Virus record (IMG/VR): IMGVR_UViG_2693429768_000001
Span: 12,099-76,098 of that record
Source: a virus
Lineage: Duplodnaviria; Heunggongvirae; Uroviricota; Caudoviricetes
Direction: 5' to 3' (one strand)
Length of the DNA stretch: 64,000 nt
Shown here: positions 11,941-64,000 of the stretch, one piece after another
Layout of the letters: every line of letters begins with the position of its first letter
How positions within the stretch are numbered: position 1 is the first letter of the stretch
Made by a program: the position numbers and the translations under genes
The notes under the pieces: generated by a model
What the model saw: the letters and a program-made list of their open reading frames with translations, nothing else
Databases searched by the model: none
What the model was told of the DNA's origin: nothing

Positions 11941-13148
11941 GCCGCCTCACCCCTAACAAACTCAATTCGATCAAACACAGCCTTAGTGAAACGCTCGGCC
12001 TCGGTTCGTGCCTTCTTCAGCGCCTCTGCACTGCCTGGATACGATTGCGGGTTGGCACTGATTACGGTGTCGAAAGACTCGCCGCATCGCTCAAATCCAT
12101 CCAGACGAGGCAGAGAAGAGTCCAGAATGTTGCTGGCGTAAACCTCACGCGCAAGGCTGTGTGATGTCTCGTGATCGCGCTTGCCGGTCATCTTCGACAT
12201 AAAACCAATGCTGGCGCTTAAACGCGGTTCTACGCCTTCCTCCTCCAGTTGCTCCAGCATTTCTGGCAGACGGGTGAGATATTTCAGTGTTGAGTGGAAG
12301 TCAACCTGGGCTGGTGGGGTAGGGGTAAGCAGCAAATCGCTGGCCGCCAGACCGTTGAGCAGGAACGGATCCAGGTGTGGACCGGTATCAATAAAGATAA
12401 AGTCATAATCATCCGCAACACGATCAATGATATTGCGTCGAAGGATTTCGTACTGATTTTGTCCGGGAAGATGCTCTTCAACCAGCTCTTTCCATTGGCT
12501 GGCAACAAAGCCATCGTCGATAGAGGCTGGAATCACGTCTACGCCAGGAACGATGGTCGGACGAATCACCTCTTTGCGTAGCGTCTCCGCGTCCAGGTCG
12601 TTCAGCATCGCCTGCGCGGCGGTTTCCAGGATGGAACCAATACTGTGAGTATGGTCGAGGAACATTGTGCTGGATGCCTGAGGGTCAAGGTCAATTACCA
12701 GAATGCGCAGATCGTGACGCAGTAAATCCTGATGCACACGCAGAGCGTGCGCCAACGTGACTGTGGAAACCGTTTTGGATACGCCACCCTTCAGGTTTAC
12801 GACAAAAATAACGTAAGGCGATTTGTGAATGTCGCGATATTTTGGGATCTTACGGTGGGCATAGATATCAATGACGTTCTGGATGGTCAGCGCGTACTGT
12901 TCAACGTTACCGACCTGTTTCTTGTTGAACTGGTACCCATCATCTTCCATCTCTTTGATGGCCTGCTCCACAATGCGGCGGCTCAGCTTCGGCAACTTTG
13001 CCACAGCGTTACGAGTGAACGTCTGATAATACTCGGTCTGATTGAACTCTTTGCGCTGATCTTCAATATCCTGACTCATGGCCTTAAGTAATGCGCTTGC
13101 ACGAAGAGCTATGGTGCCGACACCGCCGTAATCGCGTTTCATCATCAT
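11937..13148 (-). CDS. parA: ParA partition ATPase (403 aa)
   Basis: Deviant Walker A KGGVSKT; overlaps parB start; P1 synteny. Confidence 0.9.
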   Translation of the reverse strand: MMMKRDYGGVGTIALRASALLKAMSQDIEDQRKEFNQTEYYQTFTRNAVAKLPKLSRRIVEQAIKEMEDDGYQFNKKQVGNVEQYALTIQNVIDIYAHRKIPKYRDIHKSPYVIFVVNLKGGVSKTVSTVTLAHALRVHQDLLRHDLRILVIDLDPQASSTMFLDHTHSIGSILETAAQAMLNDLDAETLRKEVIRPTIVPGVDVIPASIDDGFVASQWKELVEEHLPGQNQYEILRRNIIDRVADDYDFIFIDTGPHLDPFLLNGLAASDLLLTPTPPAQVDFHSTLKYLTRLPEMLEQLEEEGVEPRLSASIGFMSKMTGKRDHETSHSLAREVYASNILDSSLPRLDGFERCGESFDTVISANPQSYPGSAEALKKARTEAERFTKAVFDRIEFVRGEAA

Positions 13149-55343: not shown

Positions 55344-55985
55344 ATGGATAAGAAAATATGCGTTGTTTCGATGAGCGTCGGCAAACCGGCGTCAATGACT
55401 GCTGCATGGATCAACAATGAGCTAATAATGGCTGAGCGGACCAGCTACCCTGAACGCCGCCGCGATATGGAACTCCAGCTGCTGCGCGAATTGCGAGAAA
55501 AAGAGGAAAAGGGTTTTATCGTGCTGGTGGAAGAGGAAAACAGCTTTATTACTGGTCGAGTTGGCCAGCGTGTAAGGTTGCGCGATCCCTTCATGAACGG
55601 CAGGCCGGTACTAATTGAGGCAATGCAGATTTATAAGGAGCTGGAACGCCAGAAAGCAATCAAGTTACCGCGCAAGGAATCCGGCAAATACATCCTCCAC
55701 CAAAGCATCTTCGATTCCGAACACGATAAAAAAGGCGATGAATTTTTCAACATCAACTGGAGCGAAATAACGACAGAGCATGTTCTGACGTTACTATGTT
55801 GCTTTGCGACGGAATACAACAACGTTGCCAGCGCCGACTACATCAGGGCAATGGCTGGAGAAGTTGAGGCACGCCAGGAACCATCGTTACTAAGCCCTCT
55901 GATTAACATAATTCGCGGCACCCAAACGCTGGCACAAAAACAGGTGCCTAAGGGAGTATTAACAGGAAAAGGAAATTATCTATAA
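55344..55985 (+). CDS. Hypothetical protein (P1 mat position), 213 aa from SD-supported ATG
   Basis: ORF with SD GGGGG; backbone-like composition. Confidence 0.4.
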   Translation: MDKKICVVSMSVGKPASMTAAWINNELIMAERTSYPERRRDMELQLLRELREKEEKGFIVLVEEENSFITGRVGQRVRLRDPFMNGRPVLIEAMQIYKELERQKAIKLPRKESGKYILHQSIFDSEHDKKGDEFFNINWSEITTEHVLTLLCCFATEYNNVASADYIRAMAGEVEARQEPSLLSPLINIIRGTQTLAQKQVPKGVLTGKGNYL

Positions 55986-56041
55986 ACGTCAATGCATTAG
56001 GGTATACTTCTCCGTAGAACTATAAGTAAATGGAGTAAGTA

Positions 56042-57346
56042 ATGAGCGAGTATATAGAAATTGCCTATGCAGCGGCTACACATAGGCTGTGCTTTCTTAC
56101 AGGCACTGGATTTTCAAAGGCTGTTTCTGATGATAAAGCCCCAAGTTGGCAATCTTTATTGGAGCAACTGTGCGGTTTATTGAAGGATGGTGACTCACTC
56201 AAAGAGGAATTATTTCCTGATGGAAAAGCAAAAGACCTTAGCCTTGAAGAAGCTGCTCAGGTTATTGCACTAAAATTTATACTTTCGGGGAAAAATATTT
56301 ACCAAGAGATTGAGAAAATCATAGCCTCAATCGAACTTGATCCATCAATTGAATATATTCAAGACTTTTTCAAAGAAAACACATTTAAAGTAATTACGAC
56401 AAATTATGACAAGTTAGCAGAAAAGCTGGCTGGAGAGAATCGAACGTGTACAATCACCCCCGGCCTGCCAATTCCAAAATATAATTGTGAGGTTAAAGTC
56501 TACCATGTTCACGGTTCTATAGACTCCCCATCAGACATGGTTGTTACTAGCGAGGATTATTTCAGATTTATAAATGGTAATTCTTACTTTTCTAATAAAC
56601 TAAGCACAGTTCTACATGAAAACACTATTGTTATCCTTGGCTATTCTCTAAGTGACGCGAACCTAAAGGCTATTATAAATGAATATAAGGTATTTTCACG
56701 GGACAACGTAATGTCCTCCAATATTTTCCTTGTTTCCCGAGGGGAACTATTGCAACCTATTAAAGATTACTATTTTTCCTGCTATGGGGTTAGGGTTATA
56801 GATAAAACAGAGGTATCTGATTTCTTTAGAAAACTTAACGATAAAATTCCAGAAGCAAAAAAAATAAAAGACAAATTGAGGCACTCAATCAAATCGGTAA
56901 TAAAAAACGGAAGAGAGTATAAAATAGAGTTCTTGAAGCTAGAGGATTCTTTTTATCATATCATTTCCTCCATTTCATCATCTGGATATAGCTGGAATAA
57001 TGAAAATGTATTAAATGTTTTTTGTAATATAATAGATAAAAAAATAGAACTTACTAAAAAGCCTGGCGCATGGGAGCAGTATGAACACCTGGCAAAATGG
57101 CTTATTTATTTCGGTAGTTTATTTGAAGTAAAAGGAACCAATTTTGAGAAAAAATACATACATGCGGTTGAACACTCAATGACTTATATGAATAAACCTT
57201 ACGAAACAGGCTACTCATGGCTAGCATATCTAGCCTGGAAAACAAAATGGCCTTCACTGACAGCATCTAACCGCTCTCTTATTAAGAATGAGATGGAAGA
57301 TATCCCGCTACAACAGATTCACGATATTGTATCTAAGTTTATATAG
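56042..57346 (+). CDS. SIR2-like (SIR2_2-type) protein with uncharacterised C-terminal domain, 434 aa; candidate NAD-depleting defence effector
   Basis: Motifs FLTGTGFS, ITTNYD and VYHVHGS in N-terminal half; AT-rich gene with own SD; lies where P1 carries res-mod. Confidence 0.75.
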   Translation: MSEYIEIAYAAATHRLCFLTGTGFSKAVSDDKAPSWQSLLEQLCGLLKDGDSLKEELFPDGKAKDLSLEEAAQVIALKFILSGKNIYQEIEKIIASIELDPSIEYIQDFFKENTFKVITTNYDKLAEKLAGENRTCTITPGLPIPKYNCEVKVYHVHGSIDSPSDMVVTSEDYFRFINGNSYFSNKLSTVLHENTIVILGYSLSDANLKAIINEYKVFSRDNVMSSNIFLVSRGELLQPIKDYYFSCYGVRVIDKTEVSDFFRKLNDKIPEAKKIKDKLRHSIKSVIKNGREYKIEFLKLEDSFYHIISSISSSGYSWNNENVLNVFCNIIDKKIELTKKPGAWEQYEHLAKWLIYFGSLFEVKGTNFEKKYIHAVEHSMTYMNKPYETGYSWLAYLAWKTKWPSLTASNRSLIKNEMEDIPLQQIHDIVSKFI

Positions 57347-57355
57347 TATATTTAT

Positions 57356-57382
57356 CTCCGGCCTAATCTCCCTAGGCCGGAG
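57356..57382. terminator. 10-bp perfect GC-rich inverted repeat (ctccggccta / taggccggag) between convergent genes
   Basis: Hairpin read directly; no clean U-tract on either strand, so function as bidirectional terminator is inferred. Confidence 0.45.
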
Positions 57383-57387
57383 AGTTC

Positions 57388-58106: not shown

Positions 58107-61100
58107 TTATGCGTATTGTTGGATGACGGCCAGAACGTCCGCCACGTTGTGTTTTGTCTCGATAATCCACCAGTTACCCGGGAAATCGCTGTTCTTCGCC
58201 TTCGCTGGCAGCCAGCGAGCGCCGAATTTCGCCTTGATTGCGTCTTTCGCACGGAAAAGAACGCCTTTCATGCCTGAGGCTTCCTGAAGCCCAAATACCT
58301 CGCCAGCGGCGAATTTTGGTGCGTACATCATCTTCAGGTCGGCGGTGGATACGCGATAATTCAGACCAAGAGACTGAGCTATGCTGGTGGCATCACCCTG
58401 TATTGATGATAACTCTTCTTGTTTCTCGTTTCTGGCGGCAATCTCTTCCTCCGTGATGTTGCCAAGGGCTAGGTTTATCCGATCAGCGTCGGCCTGTTTC
58501 TCTTCATCGGTGCGCCCGGCAAGAACCGTGTTAATTCTCTGCAATATCTCCACATGATTCTTGCGCATGCTGAGCAATTCCGGCGTAACCTCGTTAAGAT
58601 CCACCAGCCCAAGGATGGCAAGGTCGGAAAACATTGATACCAGGTTGTAGGTCATGCGATAGCTGAGTTGACCATAGGCTGATGGCAACTTCACCGCATC
58701 CATTTGATAGGCATCCATAAATTTAGAGCCGTCGTTTACGACATCCGCTATTGCAGGTGTGATTTTCCCTGTGGTGGCGGCCTCCCTGATTGCTGTTACC
58801 CACGATTGAGTCAGCGCGGCGACTGCATGATTCAGATTGGCTTCCCGTTCTGCTTCGATGCGCGCGCTTGCTGCGTCCATTGCCTGCTTGATCTCGGCTT
58901 TATTGCTGTAAATGCCAATGGTGCCAAACTGTGCTGTGGTGATCTCATAATCTGACGCCCGGAACTCATTGGTACCGAAAATGGCATTGGTGACTTCAAG
59001 TTCAGAATCCCCGTTACGAGTAGCCCCCTGGCTTGTTTTTTCCGGCATTCTGGCGATCGCATCCGCTATTTTCTCCTGAATTGCTTCAGGGGATAGCGTA
59101 TCTCCGTATGACGCGATTACATCGCCATAATTGGAGCCAAACAATTCAACCAGGAATGTTTCTGCCGAACGGATCTGGCGGTTATTCCCTTCCGACATCA
59201 TACCAAGCACCCATTTTGCAATTGACGACTTCAGCGCGCCGTCACGGCGATCCGGGTAAACCGCATGCTTCAGTGGGTCCGTATAGGTACCAACAAAATC
59301 AATGCTATAGCCTGACTCTGTAGTCTGAACGCCGTACGAGTCAGTTATTTTGATCATGCCGCGCTGCTGGAAACGGTAGAAATCGTCACAGGAAATGATG
59401 TCGTTAATCCCGGCGATGGAGACGCCACCACTGATTTTCTGCATAACAGCATCTTCATCGGGAGTTACATCCACCTGTTTATCCAGCGTCTTCACATCCC
59501 AGTTACCCGATTTGGTGCCTTTGAAGGTAAAGATGATCTCCACGTCTGCGCGCTGGCTGTCGAAGTCCAGCGACTTAATGCGAACGATATCACCGGCACA
59601 ATCGTAGTATTGGCCTACACGCCATGAGCGATCGCCGATAACAAGGAACTCACTCGCATGGTTAACCAGGTCAGGATCAACATCCAGAATGCCTTTATTT
59701 ATTGCATCCTCCACCAGCGGGCGCAGGCGTTTGATATCCGTCGCGGCCTTCTGAGTACGGTTCAATAATTTCTCATAGCGGGAGATGGCTTGAGAGATAT
59801 TAGCCTTGCGCTGAATGGCGCTTTTCAACGACGCGCGATACTGTGCTAACAACGTACGGTCTGTGTGATGGACGCTACCCCAGCGGGCTTTCCAGTCTGC
59901 GTTATCAGCTGCTTTGGCCATTACCGCCTGTTTGAATTTAGCTACCTCGGCGGTGGTCTTTTCAAGTTCCGCTTTGCTTCGCTCTAATTCAGCGGTAAGT
60001 ACCTCCACATCCTCGCCAGCTGCGTGCTGCGCCTTGATGTAGTTCTGAAGGTCGATAGTAGCCTGTTCTTTCTGGCGAGCGCGTTGCGCGGCTTTCGCCT
60101 TATCCATTTGAACCTGCATCATTGCCAGACGTTCGCCATCATCCTTAGCGGTATACATCTGCATTTCGATCATATCGTTGGCGTCGGCGTTCTCCATTTC
60201 TGACTTATCTGAACGGAGGATATCGGAGATCCAGCCTGCTTTACGCTTCAGCGTCTTCAGTCGGTATTCATCGAAAGAACCCTTGCCGCAGTAGTAGTGA
60301 ACGCGAACGCTTGCACGGTTGGAGCCAACTCGGGCACCGCGACCGTTACGCTGTGCGATACTGGCTGGTGTCCATGGCAACGTCAGATGATGGATGTCAG
60401 TCGTTCCTCGATGCAGGTTGATACCCACCTCTGCCTTTTTGTTGCAGATGATGATCGGAGTCCGGCCCTCCTGGAAGTCGGCTGCAATCTTTTCCAGACC
60501 GCCCAACGACATTTCATTCTGCTGCGCGATATAGGCGTCATACAGAGCCATTTGCTCGTTGTATTTCGCTATCTGTGCATCTGTTGGTTCATCCGGTAAC
60601 TCTTTCGGCGGTTTAACCGCTTTCAGTTTCTTACCGGTTTTACCTGCCTCGGCAACCGTCTGAGCATTCAGGATCCCCACCTTTGAAGGTTCAAGGTTAA
60701 GAGCATTGCAGATAATGCGCTTGAGCTTCTGGTGCTGCGTTTTTTCGTCCGTGAAGATGATTTGCTTACCTTCCGGGAAAAACTCCTTCAGCGTGGCGAT
60801 CAGCTTCACGTATTTGGGCGTAACGGGGTGAGTTACGGTCTGTTCGTCAATGCCAAACTTGGCCAAGCGCTTATTCACTTCCTGCTCGAACGCTTCCGGA
60901 ACCTGCAACTGAATAAACTCGCCCTTATCTATCAGGGAGTATTGCGATTGCTGCGTGATTGAATCATCACTGTCGTCGTCTTCGCTGGTGGCTTGTTTGG
61001 GCAAACTGTCCGCCAGCTGCTGCACCGCATCGGCGTACTCCGGCAGGAAACGATAGGTGATCCGGCGATAGTACAGGTCCATGTCAGTACATACGCGGTC

Positions 61101-63809
61101 CATATCCCTGATTATTGAGAAGATCGGACGGGCTTTCTCGTGCTCAATCACTCCGTCTTCATCGACCGAGGTCGTTACGCCATTGTTGGCTTTGGCCGCC
61201 GCTTCCGCCTGCTGACGCAATTCTTCATACGCCGCCAGTTGTTCTTCAGTAAGTGGTGCATCCTGCTGGTGTTCGTCCAGCTCCGGGATCTCCACGGTAT
61301 CCTTAACGTCTTCCGCCGTTTTAAGCGTTGTCCAGCGATGGAATATGCCGCGCAGCGCATCAAGGTTTTCAAAGCCCACCAGCGCCATTTTTTCTTCAAC
61401 TTCACCGCTGATTTTCTGTACCGTTTCCAGCCTGGTCTTGCCGAAGAATTTAACGAAGTCATCAGGACCGTAGATCCCCATCTTCTGCCAGTATTCCTTC
61501 GGCAGAACATGAGAAAGCATGTTGTATGCATCGATCGGGGTGTTAACGACTGGCGTTGCAGTCAGGAGAACCGGTCCACGCCCACCATTCTTTTTCATCA
61601 GGTACGCGTTTTTGATTGCCATATCTCGCGCCGATTGCGCCACCGCGCTGGTGGGCAGATAGGCCAGCTGTGACGCTTCGCGACCATTTTTATAGCTATT
61701 GCGGTAGTTGTGGCCTTCGTCAGCAATCACGCTGTCGAAGCCCATATCCTCAAAGTACGGATACTTCTCTGCTTTTTCGGTACCGGTATCTGAATACTCC
61801 GACAATACCCGGCGACGCGCCGCCTCTTTGCGATGGGAATCGGAGTCCATTGCGCTGGCCACACGCCCGGCAGCAACGAAGTCATAAAGCATGTCTTGTG
61901 CATGCTCATCTACGGTGTCATCACGTAGCGGAATGCGGGCGTATTGTTCTTTGGTAAACACGACTGCACGGTAGTTTGAGTGCGGGATCGCGTTCATCCG
62001 CGCCGTGATAGTGGCTTCATCTGCCAGCTTAAGGGCATCGCGCATAACGGGAGTGCCATCTGCACCAACGACAGGTTTACCGTTCTCATCGAGCACCGGC
62101 ACCTGGCGAATCTGATCGCCATCCATCAGCACATCAAGACCGACGAACAGGTAGTTACTGAATGCCTCTTCACTCAGAAACTCTTTTGCTTCGTAATACC
62201 AGTTTTCCAGCACTGATTTAGGCACTACATACGCAGTACGGGTGGAACGACCGTTCTCATAGTTGAACGCCTCAAGCGCCAGCGCGGTCGTGGTTTTACC
62301 CAGCCCGGTGCCGAAGCCCAGGATGCCGCGCCCATCTTCGGACAGTCGGCGCACCTCGCTATTCTGGTAATCAAATGGCTGACGCTTACCGCTTAATCCC
62401 TTCAACCCAAGCGGATCACCAGAGTGTTCATACGGAATATTGCTATTGAAAACATCGTTGTATTTGGCAACCAGCTCATCGTAGCGATCGTGCGTCTTGA
62501 TCCACTTATTGAACTGGTCCTCAAGCAGTGCCATCTGCTCGCGGTAGCCGTTCGCCGTCGCGCTATCTTTGCCACCGATACGCGCACCATTGAGATACTT
62601 TTCCAGCTGTGCCGGGAACCCGGTCGCGTTTTCACCTGATTTACGGTCCCACTCGTAGTGGATCTCGCCTGTTTCTTTATCCTTGCGCTGGACGACACCG
62701 TATCGGTGCCCGACGAACAGACCATCACCACCGTGATAGGTGTCAGAAACCATTTCGTCGCCTTCCAGCTGCACTGACTGCACATAGCGCAGATCCGGAT
62801 AGCCGTTTTCCTGCAAAAACTCCAGAATGACGGAGCGGTCGAACCAACGGCTATTGAGCTTAAAGCGGATATTCTCTGCTGGCGTCTTGATGCGCTTCTC
62901 TTCGATCGCTGCCAGCTGATTAAGGACGTTGTTCTTTACTGGACCGTCGGGGAGTGTGGCAAGGAATTCCTGTTTTGGAGCCACTATCTCGTTAATGTCG
63001 CCGCTGGTGGCGCGGGCGAACGGAACAATCCCGCCATACGGTGAAACCGCAATGCCAGGGGTGCTGGCCAATAAATTAAGCAACTCGTCATCACTGGCTG
63101 GCAGTTCGCCGGTAAACGCAAGGCGGAAATCATCGAGCTGGATTGGATCGCGAGTGAGATCACTGTAGAGATAACGCAGGGTGTCCTGATAGCTGGTGGA
63201 GTCATAACTTGCGCTGGAATCATGCGTAACCAGCTTTCCTGTCAGCTCGTCAGAAATAGTGCCATCCAGCTTAATTGCACCACGGAAAGCAAACCAGGCG
63301 CGCGCACCGCTCCCCGATAATTTCGCTATCGGACCGCGACCGGGGTTACCAAAACGGTCAATCTCTGCCTGCAAACGGGATACCAGAGAAAGGCGCTGCT
63401 GTTCGATTTGTTCAGCACTATGCCCGGCGGCCTTCATGTCCTGATATTCAATTAACATCCGGCCAATCATCGCCCCGCGATACAAGCGTTCACGGTATTT
63501 TTCAGGCTGGCTGTTAATCCAGTCCACCAGCTGCACCATATCGTCGCTGATTGATGTGGTGTACTTATCGCGGACATTTGCCATCTGGGTAAATGTCATG
63601 CCGAGACGGCCTTCTGTTGTAGTCAGGTTACGCTGAAGAGCCTCCCAGCTATCCGCGCCATAACTGGCAGCATCGATCTTAAGTTCCTTCCCGGCATCAG
63701 CTTCAATCCAGCGACCACCAGCATATTTTTGCCATACGCCATTAATCAGGCGCATTTCCCCTTCATCAACAACATCTGCGGTCGGTAACGGTTCAGCCAT
63801 ATCGAGCAA
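58107..63809 (-). CDS. darB: DarB-like giant SF2 helicase protein; reading frame is closed about 30 codons upstream of the first start codon, so the N-terminal part expected for DarB is missing
   Basis: Helicase motifs GFGTGLGKTT, VIADEGHNY, LLTATPV, QRNGRGARVGS; 1900-codon ORF; in-frame stop near 63899-63901; no DPPY/NPPY MTase motif in the ORF. Confidence 0.65.
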   Translation of the reverse strand: MLDMAEPLPTADVVDEGEMRLINGVWQKYAGGRWIEADAGKELKIDAASYGADSWEALQRNLTTTEGRLGMTFTQMANVRDKYTTSISDDMVQLVDWINSQPEKYRERLYRGAMIGRMLIEYQDMKAAGHSAEQIEQQRLSLVSRLQAEIDRFGNPGRGPIAKLSGSGARAWFAFRGAIKLDGTISDELTGKLVTHDSSASYDSTSYQDTLRYLYSDLTRDPIQLDDFRLAFTGELPASDDELLNLLASTPGIAVSPYGGIVPFARATSGDINEIVAPKQEFLATLPDGPVKNNVLNQLAAIEEKRIKTPAENIRFKLNSRWFDRSVILEFLQENGYPDLRYVQSVQLEGDEMVSDTYHGGDGLFVGHRYGVVQRKDKETGEIHYEWDRKSGENATGFPAQLEKYLNGARIGGKDSATANGYREQMALLEDQFNKWIKTHDRYDELVAKYNDVFNSNIPYEHSGDPLGLKGLSGKRQPFDYQNSEVRRLSEDGRGILGFGTGLGKTTTALALEAFNYENGRSTRTAYVVPKSVLENWYYEAKEFLSEEAFSNYLFVGLDVLMDGDQIRQVPVLDENGKPVVGADGTPVMRDALKLADEATITARMNAIPHSNYRAVVFTKEQYARIPLRDDTVDEHAQDMLYDFVAAGRVASAMDSDSHRKEAARRRVLSEYSDTGTEKAEKYPYFEDMGFDSVIADEGHNYRNSYKNGREASQLAYLPTSAVAQSARDMAIKNAYLMKKNGGRGPVLLTATPVVNTPIDAYNMLSHVLPKEYWQKMGIYGPDDFVKFFGKTRLETVQKISGEVEEKMALVGFENLDALRGIFHRWTTLKTAEDVKDTVEIPELDEHQQDAPLTEEQLAAYEELRQQAEAAAKANNGVTTSVDEDGVIEHEKARPIFSIIRDMDRVCTDMDLYYRRITYRFLPEYADAVQQLADSLPKQATSEDDDSDDSITQQSQYSLIDKGEFIQLQVPEAFEQEVNKRLAKFGIDEQTVTHPVTPKYVKLIATLKEFFPEGKQIIFTDEKTQHQKLKRIICNALNLEPSKVGILNAQTVAEAGKTGKKLKAVKPPKELPDEPTDAQIAKYNEQMALYDAYIAQQNEMSLGGLEKIAADFQEGRTPIIICNKKAEVGINLHRGTTDIHHLTLPWTPASIAQRNGRGARVGSNRASVRVHYYCGKGSFDEYRLKTLKRKAGWISDILRSDKSEMENADANDMIEMQMYTAKDDGERLAMMQVQMDKAKAAQRARQKEQATIDLQNYIKAQHAAGEDVEVLTAELERSKAELEKTTAEVAKFKQAVMAKAADNADWKARWGSVHHTDRTLLAQYRASLKSAIQRKANISQAISRYEKLLNRTQKAATDIKRLRPLVEDAINKGILDVDPDLVNHASEFLVIGDRSWRVGQYYDCAGDIVRIKSLDFDSQRADVEIIFTFKGTKSGNWDVKTLDKQVDVTPDEDAVMQKISGGVSIAGINDIISCDDFYRFQQRGMIKITDSYGVQTTESGYSIDFVGTYTDPLKHAVYPDRRDGALKSSIAKWVLGMMSEGNNRQIRSAETFLVELFGSNYGDVIASYGDTLSPEAIQEKIADAIARMPEKTSQGATRNGDSELEVTNAIFGTNEFRASDYEITTAQFGTIGIYSNKAEIKQAMDAASARIEAEREANLNHAVAALTQSWVTAIREAATTGKITPAIADVVNDGSKFMDAYQMDAVKLPSAYGQLSYRMTYNLVSMFSDLAILGLVDLNEVTPELLSMRKNHVEILQRINTVLAGRTDEEKQADADRINLALGNITEEEIAARNEKQEELSSIQGDATSIAQSLGLNYRVSTADLKMMYAPKFAAGEVFGLQEASGMKGVLFRAKDAIKAKFGARWLPAKAKNSDFPGNWWIIETKHNVADVLAVIQQYA

Positions 63810-64000
63810 AGACCAGTCGATACGACTTTCGAAACGATGAATCAGCTTCGCTTTAAGAGCCTGGTTATCAATCTGCCCGTCGGCACGAACCTCAATAGGG
63901 GTTTAGGGAGCAATGGAACCAAAAACCAACGTAAGAAAAATATCCGCACATTTCATCGAATAGCTCTGAAGTCCAGCGGTACGGAAACGTACGCTAGCAA

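Follow-up and report, generated by a model that had tools for sequence, protein, structure and literature searches.

A compact SIR2 protein with a family-specific C-terminal domain as a candidate single-gene defence cargo in the mat-lxc interval of a P1-like phage-plasmid

We describe here a gene on a stretch of viral DNA of 64,000 nucleotides (nt) (IMG/VR record IMGVR_UViG_2693429768_000001, positions 12,099 to 76,098), which we refer to as the window and which its sequence identifies as a P1-like phage-plasmid. The gene encodes a protein of 434 amino acids (aa) with an N-terminal SIR2 domain and a family-specific C-terminal domain (CTD), and we call gene and protein SIR2-CTD. We think it rather likely that SIR2-CTD is a self-contained, one-protein abortive-infection NAD+ glycohydrolase (NADase), carried by the phage-plasmid for its lysogen. 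What we show directly is that the catalytic core is intact, that the gene stands alone and is mobile, and that it lies in a hotspot which also holds validated defences. The superfamily to which the protein belongs is known, and what is new is a single-gene SIR2 candidate with a compact CTD module that is common and yet has no name.

The open reading frame (ORF) runs from 56042 to 57346 on the plus strand, with an ATG start and 434 codons followed by a stop codon. An earlier note on this DNA had recognised this ORF, with an intact SIR2-type core carrying three motifs and a helical C-terminal region in which no motif was recognised, and all of this has held. The motifs FLTGTGFS, ITTNYD and VYHVHGS are at residues 18-25, 118-123 and 153-159 respectively, and the Pfam SIR2_2 model matches residues 117-253 with E = 2.1e-23 and 83.4 bits (cut-off 24.5). 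There is an exact full-length family in PHROGs, phrog_7567, with no function annotated. The AlphaFold2 model (predicted local distance difference test, pLDDT, 82.9; predicted template modelling score, pTM, 0.78) has three parts. Residues 1-257 (56042-56812, plus strand) form a Rossmann SIR2 domain of seven strands that has a helical insert and is the predicted NADase; residues 258-289 form a long linker helix; and the remainder to residue 434 is an all-alpha domain, the alpha-solenoid CTD proper being at about residues 295-434 (linker and CTD together 56813-57343, plus strand, some 175 aa). No Pfam, NCBIfam or PADLOC model covers residues from about 260 to 434, and Pfam finds no NTPase domain in the protein.

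The residues G21xG23, N121 and D123 (in TTNYD) and H157 (in HVHGS) are invariant across 32 family members. The SIRim group has been defined by the presence of at least seven beta-strands and the absence of a Zn-binding Cys tetrad (Bonhomme et al., bioRxiv 10.1101/2024.09.18.613514). SIR2-CTD has no CxxC pairs in its sequence and so has no Zn-binding Cys tetrad, and on fold and motifs as predicted (Rossmann fold, GxG, xxNxD, catalytic His, seven strands and no Zn site) it is placed in the SIRim/SIR2_2 superfamily. Its catalytic residues align with N112 of ThsA and H171 of DSR2, residues at which mutation abolishes both NADase activity and defence in those systems.

The gene has no evident partner. 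The earlier note had reported no SLOG, TIR, HerA or Argonaute gene nearby, and this is correct and applies also to SMC genes, the neighbours being cre, c8, ref and mat upstream and lxc, ulx and darB downstream. For the family as a whole we clustered 1,085 neighbour ORFs from 66 loci in 66 species. No neighbour family is present in more than 7 of the loci and none is at a fixed position, and we conclude that the SIR2-CTD gene stands alone. The clusters that do recur are generic (ABC, LysR, GGDEF/EAL, histidine kinase, MCP and integrase). A partner gene for SIR2-CTD was considered and rejected, as the upstream genes in Marinobacter, Pseudoalteromonas and P1 are unrelated and nothing is conserved across the 66 loci. 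About 13-15 of 117 immediate neighbours match PADLOC defence models at E <= 1e-10, the matches being to dGTPase, MADS, PDC-S31, type I restriction endonuclease, NERD-UvrD, PD-T7-1, PD-T7-5, AbiD, AbiU, ThsB and HamB, and on these matches the neighbourhoods are predicted to be defence-rich in a minority of genomes. The Marinobacter copy, for example, adjoins type I hsdR and GmrSD. In Marinobacter and two marine metagenome contigs (stretches L006-L008, 5028-13296) the family member has DUF932, YqaJ and Gp3-like genes before it and a YgjP-like gene, type I hsdR and GmrSD after it, and this locus looks like a mobile defence island.

The stand-alone arrangement also bears on two functions unrelated to immunity. 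The carrier is a low-copy plasmid prophage already reliant on addiction modules, and SIR2-CTD could be a plasmid-addiction or other selfish toxic cargo, but no antitoxin-like partner is conserved at the 66 loci. The RefSeq name, 'NAD-dependent protein deacylase', would suggest a housekeeping-type protein deacylase, but the lack of the Zn Cys tetrad, the absence of the acyl-lysine-binding small domain and the seven-strand SIRim fold all argue otherwise. Neither function sits well with a gene that is present in only about 17% of P1-like plasmids and can be replaced by unrelated cargo or by nothing, and we regard addiction or deacylation as highly improbable.

The CTD is confined to this family. 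A CTD profile run against 1.84 billion cluster representatives found only 96 proteins, and all genuine full-length matches are of 406-480 aa with the CTD at the same position behind SIR2_2. The idea that the CTD has been shuffled onto other effectors was rejected, as the profile search finds it behind SIR2_2 only, and the module therefore appears to be exclusive to the SIR2-CTD architecture. Two long matches to the profile are spurious, being glycosidase/lectin proteins. In fold searches the CTD matches generic HEAT/TOG repeats only. It has an invariant aromatic face made up of W344, Y347, W353, W393, Y396, W399 and W403, to which N410-R411 can be added.

This face, and the finding that in structure searches the SIR2 core is closest to KomC and ThsA, which are both ligand-activated, have to be considered in relation to a different form of defence. 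SIR2-CTD could be an orphan signal-activated NADase effector, with a CTD that binds a small molecule (a nucleotide alarm signal made in trans or a phage-made metabolite) and not a phage protein, and it would then be nearer to ThsA/KomBC than to DSR2. The aromatic face and N410-R411 are conserved from alpha- to gamma-proteobacteria, which suits a ligand pocket better than an arms-race surface, and one of the 117 neighbours is a ThsB-like TIR protein. However no signal-producing partner is conserved beside SIR2-CTD in the 66 species, structure comparison reveals no SLOG, Macro, CARF, SAVED or other known ligand-sensor fold in the CTD, and the invariant aromatics could simply make up a hydrophobic core or the contact surface to the SIR2 domain. 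We consider this alternative unlikely.

With regard to the SIR2 systems already named, DSR2 of Bacillus subtilis is the best Foldseek match in the Protein Data Bank (E = 4e-11), although it is the SIR2 part alone that superposes, with a TM-score of 0.47 that is the same as for SIR2-only chains. DSR2, too, is a single-gene system in which an alpha-solenoid (HEAT-like) region comes after an N-terminal SIR2 NADase of SIRim type, and the catalytic His and Asn align. However DSR2 has about 1,000 aa and a long C-terminal sensor that binds the phage tail tube protein, whereas SIR2-CTD has 434 aa and about 140 residues of repeats. There is no sequence similarity to DSR2 beyond the SIR2 core, the matches stopping at about residue 260, and the CTD profile finds no proteins of DSR length. 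The NCBIfam Dsr2 and Dsr1 models give 30.3 and 21.1 bits respectively, against a cut-off of 1400. Judged in this way SIR2-CTD is outside DSR1/DSR2 as these are defined (about 1,000-1,300 aa, equivalog score and long sensor), and the suggestion in the earlier note that it is much shorter than these proteins and outside the known SIR2 architectures is borne out for DSR1/DSR2, Thoeris, Lamassu, SIR2-HerA, SPARSA, Avs5 and Kongming. DSR2 is nevertheless presumed, by analogy, to be the model for its action.

Thoeris ThsA has a C-terminal SLOG/STALD domain and a ThsB (TIR) partner, whereas the CTD discussed here is all-helical, HEAT-like and unrelated, and there is no TIR gene in the window, the ThsB-like protein mentioned above being the only one among the neighbours elsewhere. 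The KomC protein of Kongming has KomA and KomB as partners, and its C-terminal part is unrelated to our CTD. No HerA, Argonaute, KomA or KomB partner is present in the window or conserved near the 66 homologues, and the protein has no fused STAND NTPase, which separates the gene from SIR2-HerA (Nezha), SPARSA (SIR2-APAZ/pAgo), Avs5 (SIR2-STAND) and Kongming. Lamassu LmuA-SIR2 needs an adjacent LmuB (SMC-like), with or without LmuC, and SIR2-CTD does not qualify: in PADLOC the LmuA profile is matched at positions 21-221 of 433 only, the 66 loci have no conserved SMC-type partner, and the neighbours of ABC type are ordinary transporters whose distance from the gene varies. The best PADLOC match is PDC-S25 (E = 2e-24), which is also a single-gene SIR2 candidate, but only 152 of its 517 profile positions (127-278) are matched, all in the SIR2 core, and the match falls well short of the length of the profile.

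The nearest published concept is sole-Sir2, a stand-alone SIR2 protein of about 440 aa that hydrolyses NAD+ in vitro and has a homologue protecting against T2 and T4 (bioRxiv 10.1101/2024.12.27.630466). The likeness is in size and in the single-gene nature. The difference, going by its description only, is that sole-Sir2 has its SIR2 domain at the C-terminal end and lies within type I-C cas operons, for the most part in Neisseria (bioRxiv 10.1101/2024.12.27.630466), whereas there is no recurrent cas context at the 66 SIR2-CTD loci.

The location of the gene is a further part of the evidence. The slot after ref-mat and before lxc-ulx-darB is, as the earlier note had stated, the position of res-mod in P1, as seen in the annotation of NC_005856. 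The note was mistaken in placing IS1 there: the mat-lxc interval of reference P1 contains res and mod (EcoP1I), and the insertion sequence annotated there is an IS5 that lies inside mod in the isolate that was sequenced. RCS47 has an empty interval of only 39 bp. In phage SJ46 (NC_031129) it has a gene for a 373-aa RelA/SpoT protein with Y155 (stretch L105, 2472-3593), which is CapRel(SJ46), a fused toxin-antitoxin experimentally shown to defend against T2, T4 and SECphi27 (PMC9712102). In phage vB_EcoM-673R5 (stretch L014, 3479-4578) the annotation gives two ORFs, of 182 and 180 aa, for the CapRel gene, which may be split.

Of the 711 P1-like plasmid records that share the mat and lxc flanks, about 17% have the SIR2 gene, as two alleles. 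The other contents, seen in a sample of these records, are RelA/SpoT, a YaaC-family gene with a gene for a 169-aa protein (L100, 1816-3326), DUF2971 (L101, 1784-2794), PIN/DUF4935 (L102, 1729-2679), EAL (L103, 1742-2431), a GNAT acetyltransferase (L104, 1883-2491), an MBL-fold gene, or nothing. The cargoes with coordinates given here are mutually exclusive in the relatives, and there are at least nine alternative contents in all, including the empty state and CapRel(SJ46). Some match PADLOC candidates, namely PDC-S31 (DUF2971), PDC-S33 and PDC-S34 (PIN/DUF4935, weak), while the YaaC pair, EAL and GNAT cargoes have no PADLOC match and would be candidates for further unnamed systems.

The cassette is the exact interval from the mat stop codon to the lxc stop codon, and each cargo carries its own terminal hairpin; these alignments identify the mat-lxc interval as a hotspot where cargo is exchanged by recombination and where at least two of the systems present are validated defences. 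The earlier note had proposed that a restriction-modification system was exchanged for a different cargo gene, and it is correct that different cargo is present at the res-mod position, but this was not a single swap of restriction-modification for SIR2. The slot resembles the P2/P4 phage and satellite defence hotspots, and the CapRel(SJ46) locus, in being a short interval between conserved phage genes with mutually exclusive, self-contained cassettes, and as in the P2/P4-type hotspots the cassettes are exchanged by recombination in the flanks. Our literature search found no paper in which the mat-lxc interval of P1 is described as a hotspot, and the iLund4u hotspot preprint has no mention of the SIR2-CTD protein. 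We also observed that the last 60-100 nt or so of mat (55900-55985 in the window) vary between P1-like elements with different cargo, which puts the left recombination boundary inside the mat coding sequence, with the Mat C-terminus varying with the cargo.

The second SIR2-CTD allele, as for example in NZ_AP027178 (L096, 1842-3149), encodes a protein 57% identical to that of the window, and its exact protein is on at least 1,000 contigs. When plasmids with the two alleles are compared, DNA identity is 97-100% across mat, the leader of 56 nt and about 20 nt at the start of the ORF, about 55-65% after that, and 97-100% again inside lxc. Thus one family member replaced another, the crossovers lying in lxc and in the conserved 5' end of the gene, and we count this turnover in favour of a defence function. 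Comparison of close alleles gives omega values of 0.11-0.15 for the SIR2 domain, which is thus under purifying selection. For the closest pair the CTD has 13 non-synonymous and 3 synonymous changes against 4 and 10 in the SIR2 domain (Fisher p = 0.009), and among the changes there are charge changes clustered at residues 320-341. We treat this excess of CTD substitutions as weak evidence only.

The exact protein of the window is on 177 contigs, annotated as 'SIR2 family protein', and this allele is in 70 of 5,426 complete E. coli genomes (about 1.3%). The gene was described in the earlier note as undescribed, which is right in that it is unnamed, but with these numbers and a PHROG family (7567) it is neither rare nor previously unseen. 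Plasmids account for 71 of the 72 copies in E. coli, the other being in an integrated P1-like element. Full-length homologues with 55-61% identity and about 431-437 aa are found in Vibrio, Halomonas, Xenorhabdus, Marinobacter, Pseudoalteromonas, Klebsiella, Pantoea, Pseudomonas and Delftia, and one E. coli homologue is in a prophage, adjoining its integrase. There are 181 relatives among 185,579 species (one genome each), in the gamma-, beta-, alpha- and zeta-proteobacteria, and throughout the family the length is about 430-450 aa. The sporadic spread across species, together with the low G+C content of the gene, speaks for horizontal transfer. Most family members are in bacterial chromosomes, outside recognisable phages.

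The layout of the cassette can be given in some detail. It extends from 55986 to 57387 (plus strand), and in alignments with P1-like relatives homology ends at the mat stop codon and resumes at the lxc stop codon. On the left is mat (maturation control; 55344-55985, plus strand) and on the right lxc (modulator of C1; 57388-57636, minus strand), which are the conserved flanks of the hotspot and are named from the annotation of P1 and of plasmid NZ_CP054193. The latter is 100% identical across the cassette and is annotated with terminase, c1, coi, cre, c8, ref, mat and 'SIR2 family protein', and then lxc and ulx on the opposite strand. The 56-nt leader (55986-56041, plus strand) is near-identical 5' of the two SIR2 alleles, for which protein identity is 57%, and includes a Shine-Dalgarno sequence, GGAG, at 56032-56035, 6 nt 5' of the ATG. 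This Shine-Dalgarno sequence had been seen in the earlier note, as had the higher A+T content of the gene, for which we find G+C of 0.30-0.375 in 400-nt windows inside the gene and mostly 0.46-0.53 in the flanks. The G+C-rich hairpin that was said to close the cassette is also present, between the convergent SIR2 and lxc genes at 57355-57383 (plus strand), with a stem of 11 bp in our scan (not 10 bp) including 7 G-C pairs, and a loop of 7 nt; it is classed as terminator-like, and the other cargoes bring their own, different hairpins.

A candidate sigma-70 promoter, TTAACA-16 nt-TATAAA (55959-55986, plus strand), overlaps the 3' end of mat. It is weak, with 10 of 12 matches in our own scan, and was missed by the promoter tool, as its -10 hexamer is without the final T. 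The leader scan gave weak candidates only and no strong promoter for the SIR2 gene, the terminator scan gave no hairpin between mat and the SIR2 ATG, and read-through from mat is equally possible as an alternative to transcription from its own promoter.

Further downstream, there is an in-frame stop at about 63903-63905 in the reading frame of darB (58107-63809, minus strand). The DNA beyond this stop (window 63897-64000, GGGGTTTAGGGAGCAATGGAACCAAAAACCAACGTAAGA) resembles the 38-bp terminal inverted repeat of the Tn3 family, and the 5' end of darB seems to be truncated by a transposon that runs past the end of the window. This transposon is not IS26.

There are several points that weigh against the proposal that SIR2-CTD defends the lysogen. 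The first is its orientation, which is the same as that of mat, with a gap of only 56 nt and no terminator between them. In the P1 annotation mat has one C1-controlled and one late promoter, and transcription of the SIR2 gene may be from these, and so occur in lytic growth instead of in the lysogen. This arrangement would suit a function that serves the phage and not the host, either as an NAD+-consuming or ADP-ribosylating enzyme of P1 lytic growth, or as a counter-defence by which NAD-derived immune signals, or the precursor of these, are destroyed, and it can be added that the flanking ulx and darB are annotated in P1 as anti-restriction functions. However the characterised cargoes of the slot, EcoP1I and CapRel, defend the lysogen, the structurally neighbouring SIRim-type SIR2 domains are immune NADases in every solved case, and the family is mostly chromosomal, with no homologue found by megablast or tblastn in 50,697 records of sequenced phages. 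We judge a phage-serving function to be distinctly unlikely.

That lack of homologues in the phage records is also a difficulty for the defence proposal itself. The CTD is conserved across bacterial classes, with 64% mean column identity and many invariant aromatics, and in this it is unlike the fast-evolving sensors of phage proteins. The excess of non-synonymous changes in the CTD is not seen in comparison with the 92% allele. Control ORFs 5.5-8 kb away also match defence models in about 7-9% of cases, and the local enrichment for defence genes is therefore modest, with no sharp local peak. There is no curated defence model for SIR2-CTD, the PADLOC matches being confined to its SIR2 part, and our literature search found no paper that names, or tests by experiment, the protein or any family member.

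We nevertheless prefer an immune function, and from the structure and context we infer the NADase activity, the triggering by phage, the role of the CTD and the abortive outcome. The SIR2 domain would be an NAD+ glycohydrolase kept inactive in uninfected cells. The CTD alpha-solenoid would hold the SIR2 domain off, or sense the infection, or both, by binding a phage component or by controlling oligomerisation. A phage cue would then lead to activation, probably as an oligomer or filament as in the closest structural relatives, and the resulting NAD+ depletion would stop the infected cell before the superinfecting phage matures, in the manner of a miniature DSR2. A wider proposal, which we see as possible rather than probable, is that SIR2-CTD is the founding member of an unnamed and widespread family of minimal one-protein SIR2 immune sensors, that its tail of about 140 residues is a new compact module for trigger recognition or autoinhibition, and that mat-lxc is an unmined hotspot in which further new systems are to be found among the YaaC pair, EAL, GNAT, DUF2971 and PIN/DUF4935 cargoes.

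Few effectors of bacterial immunity have been reused as widely as the SIR2 NADases, which also have a relative in humans, FAM118B. To our knowledge the switching of a SIR2 NADase between off and on states is known only for large or multi-protein systems. Our result will not surprise specialists, and what it offers is a clean, minimal and testable system: if the proposal is true, this 434-aa protein, with switch and effector in one, would be the smallest system of its kind and an easy structural target. Recognition of mat-lxc as a hotspot that already includes EcoP1I and CapRel provides a short, defined list of further candidate systems. P1-like phage-plasmids are often found in E. coli and Salmonella from clinical and livestock sources, and with this allele in about 1.3% of complete E. 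coli genomes SIR2-CTD may therefore affect host range in phage therapy.

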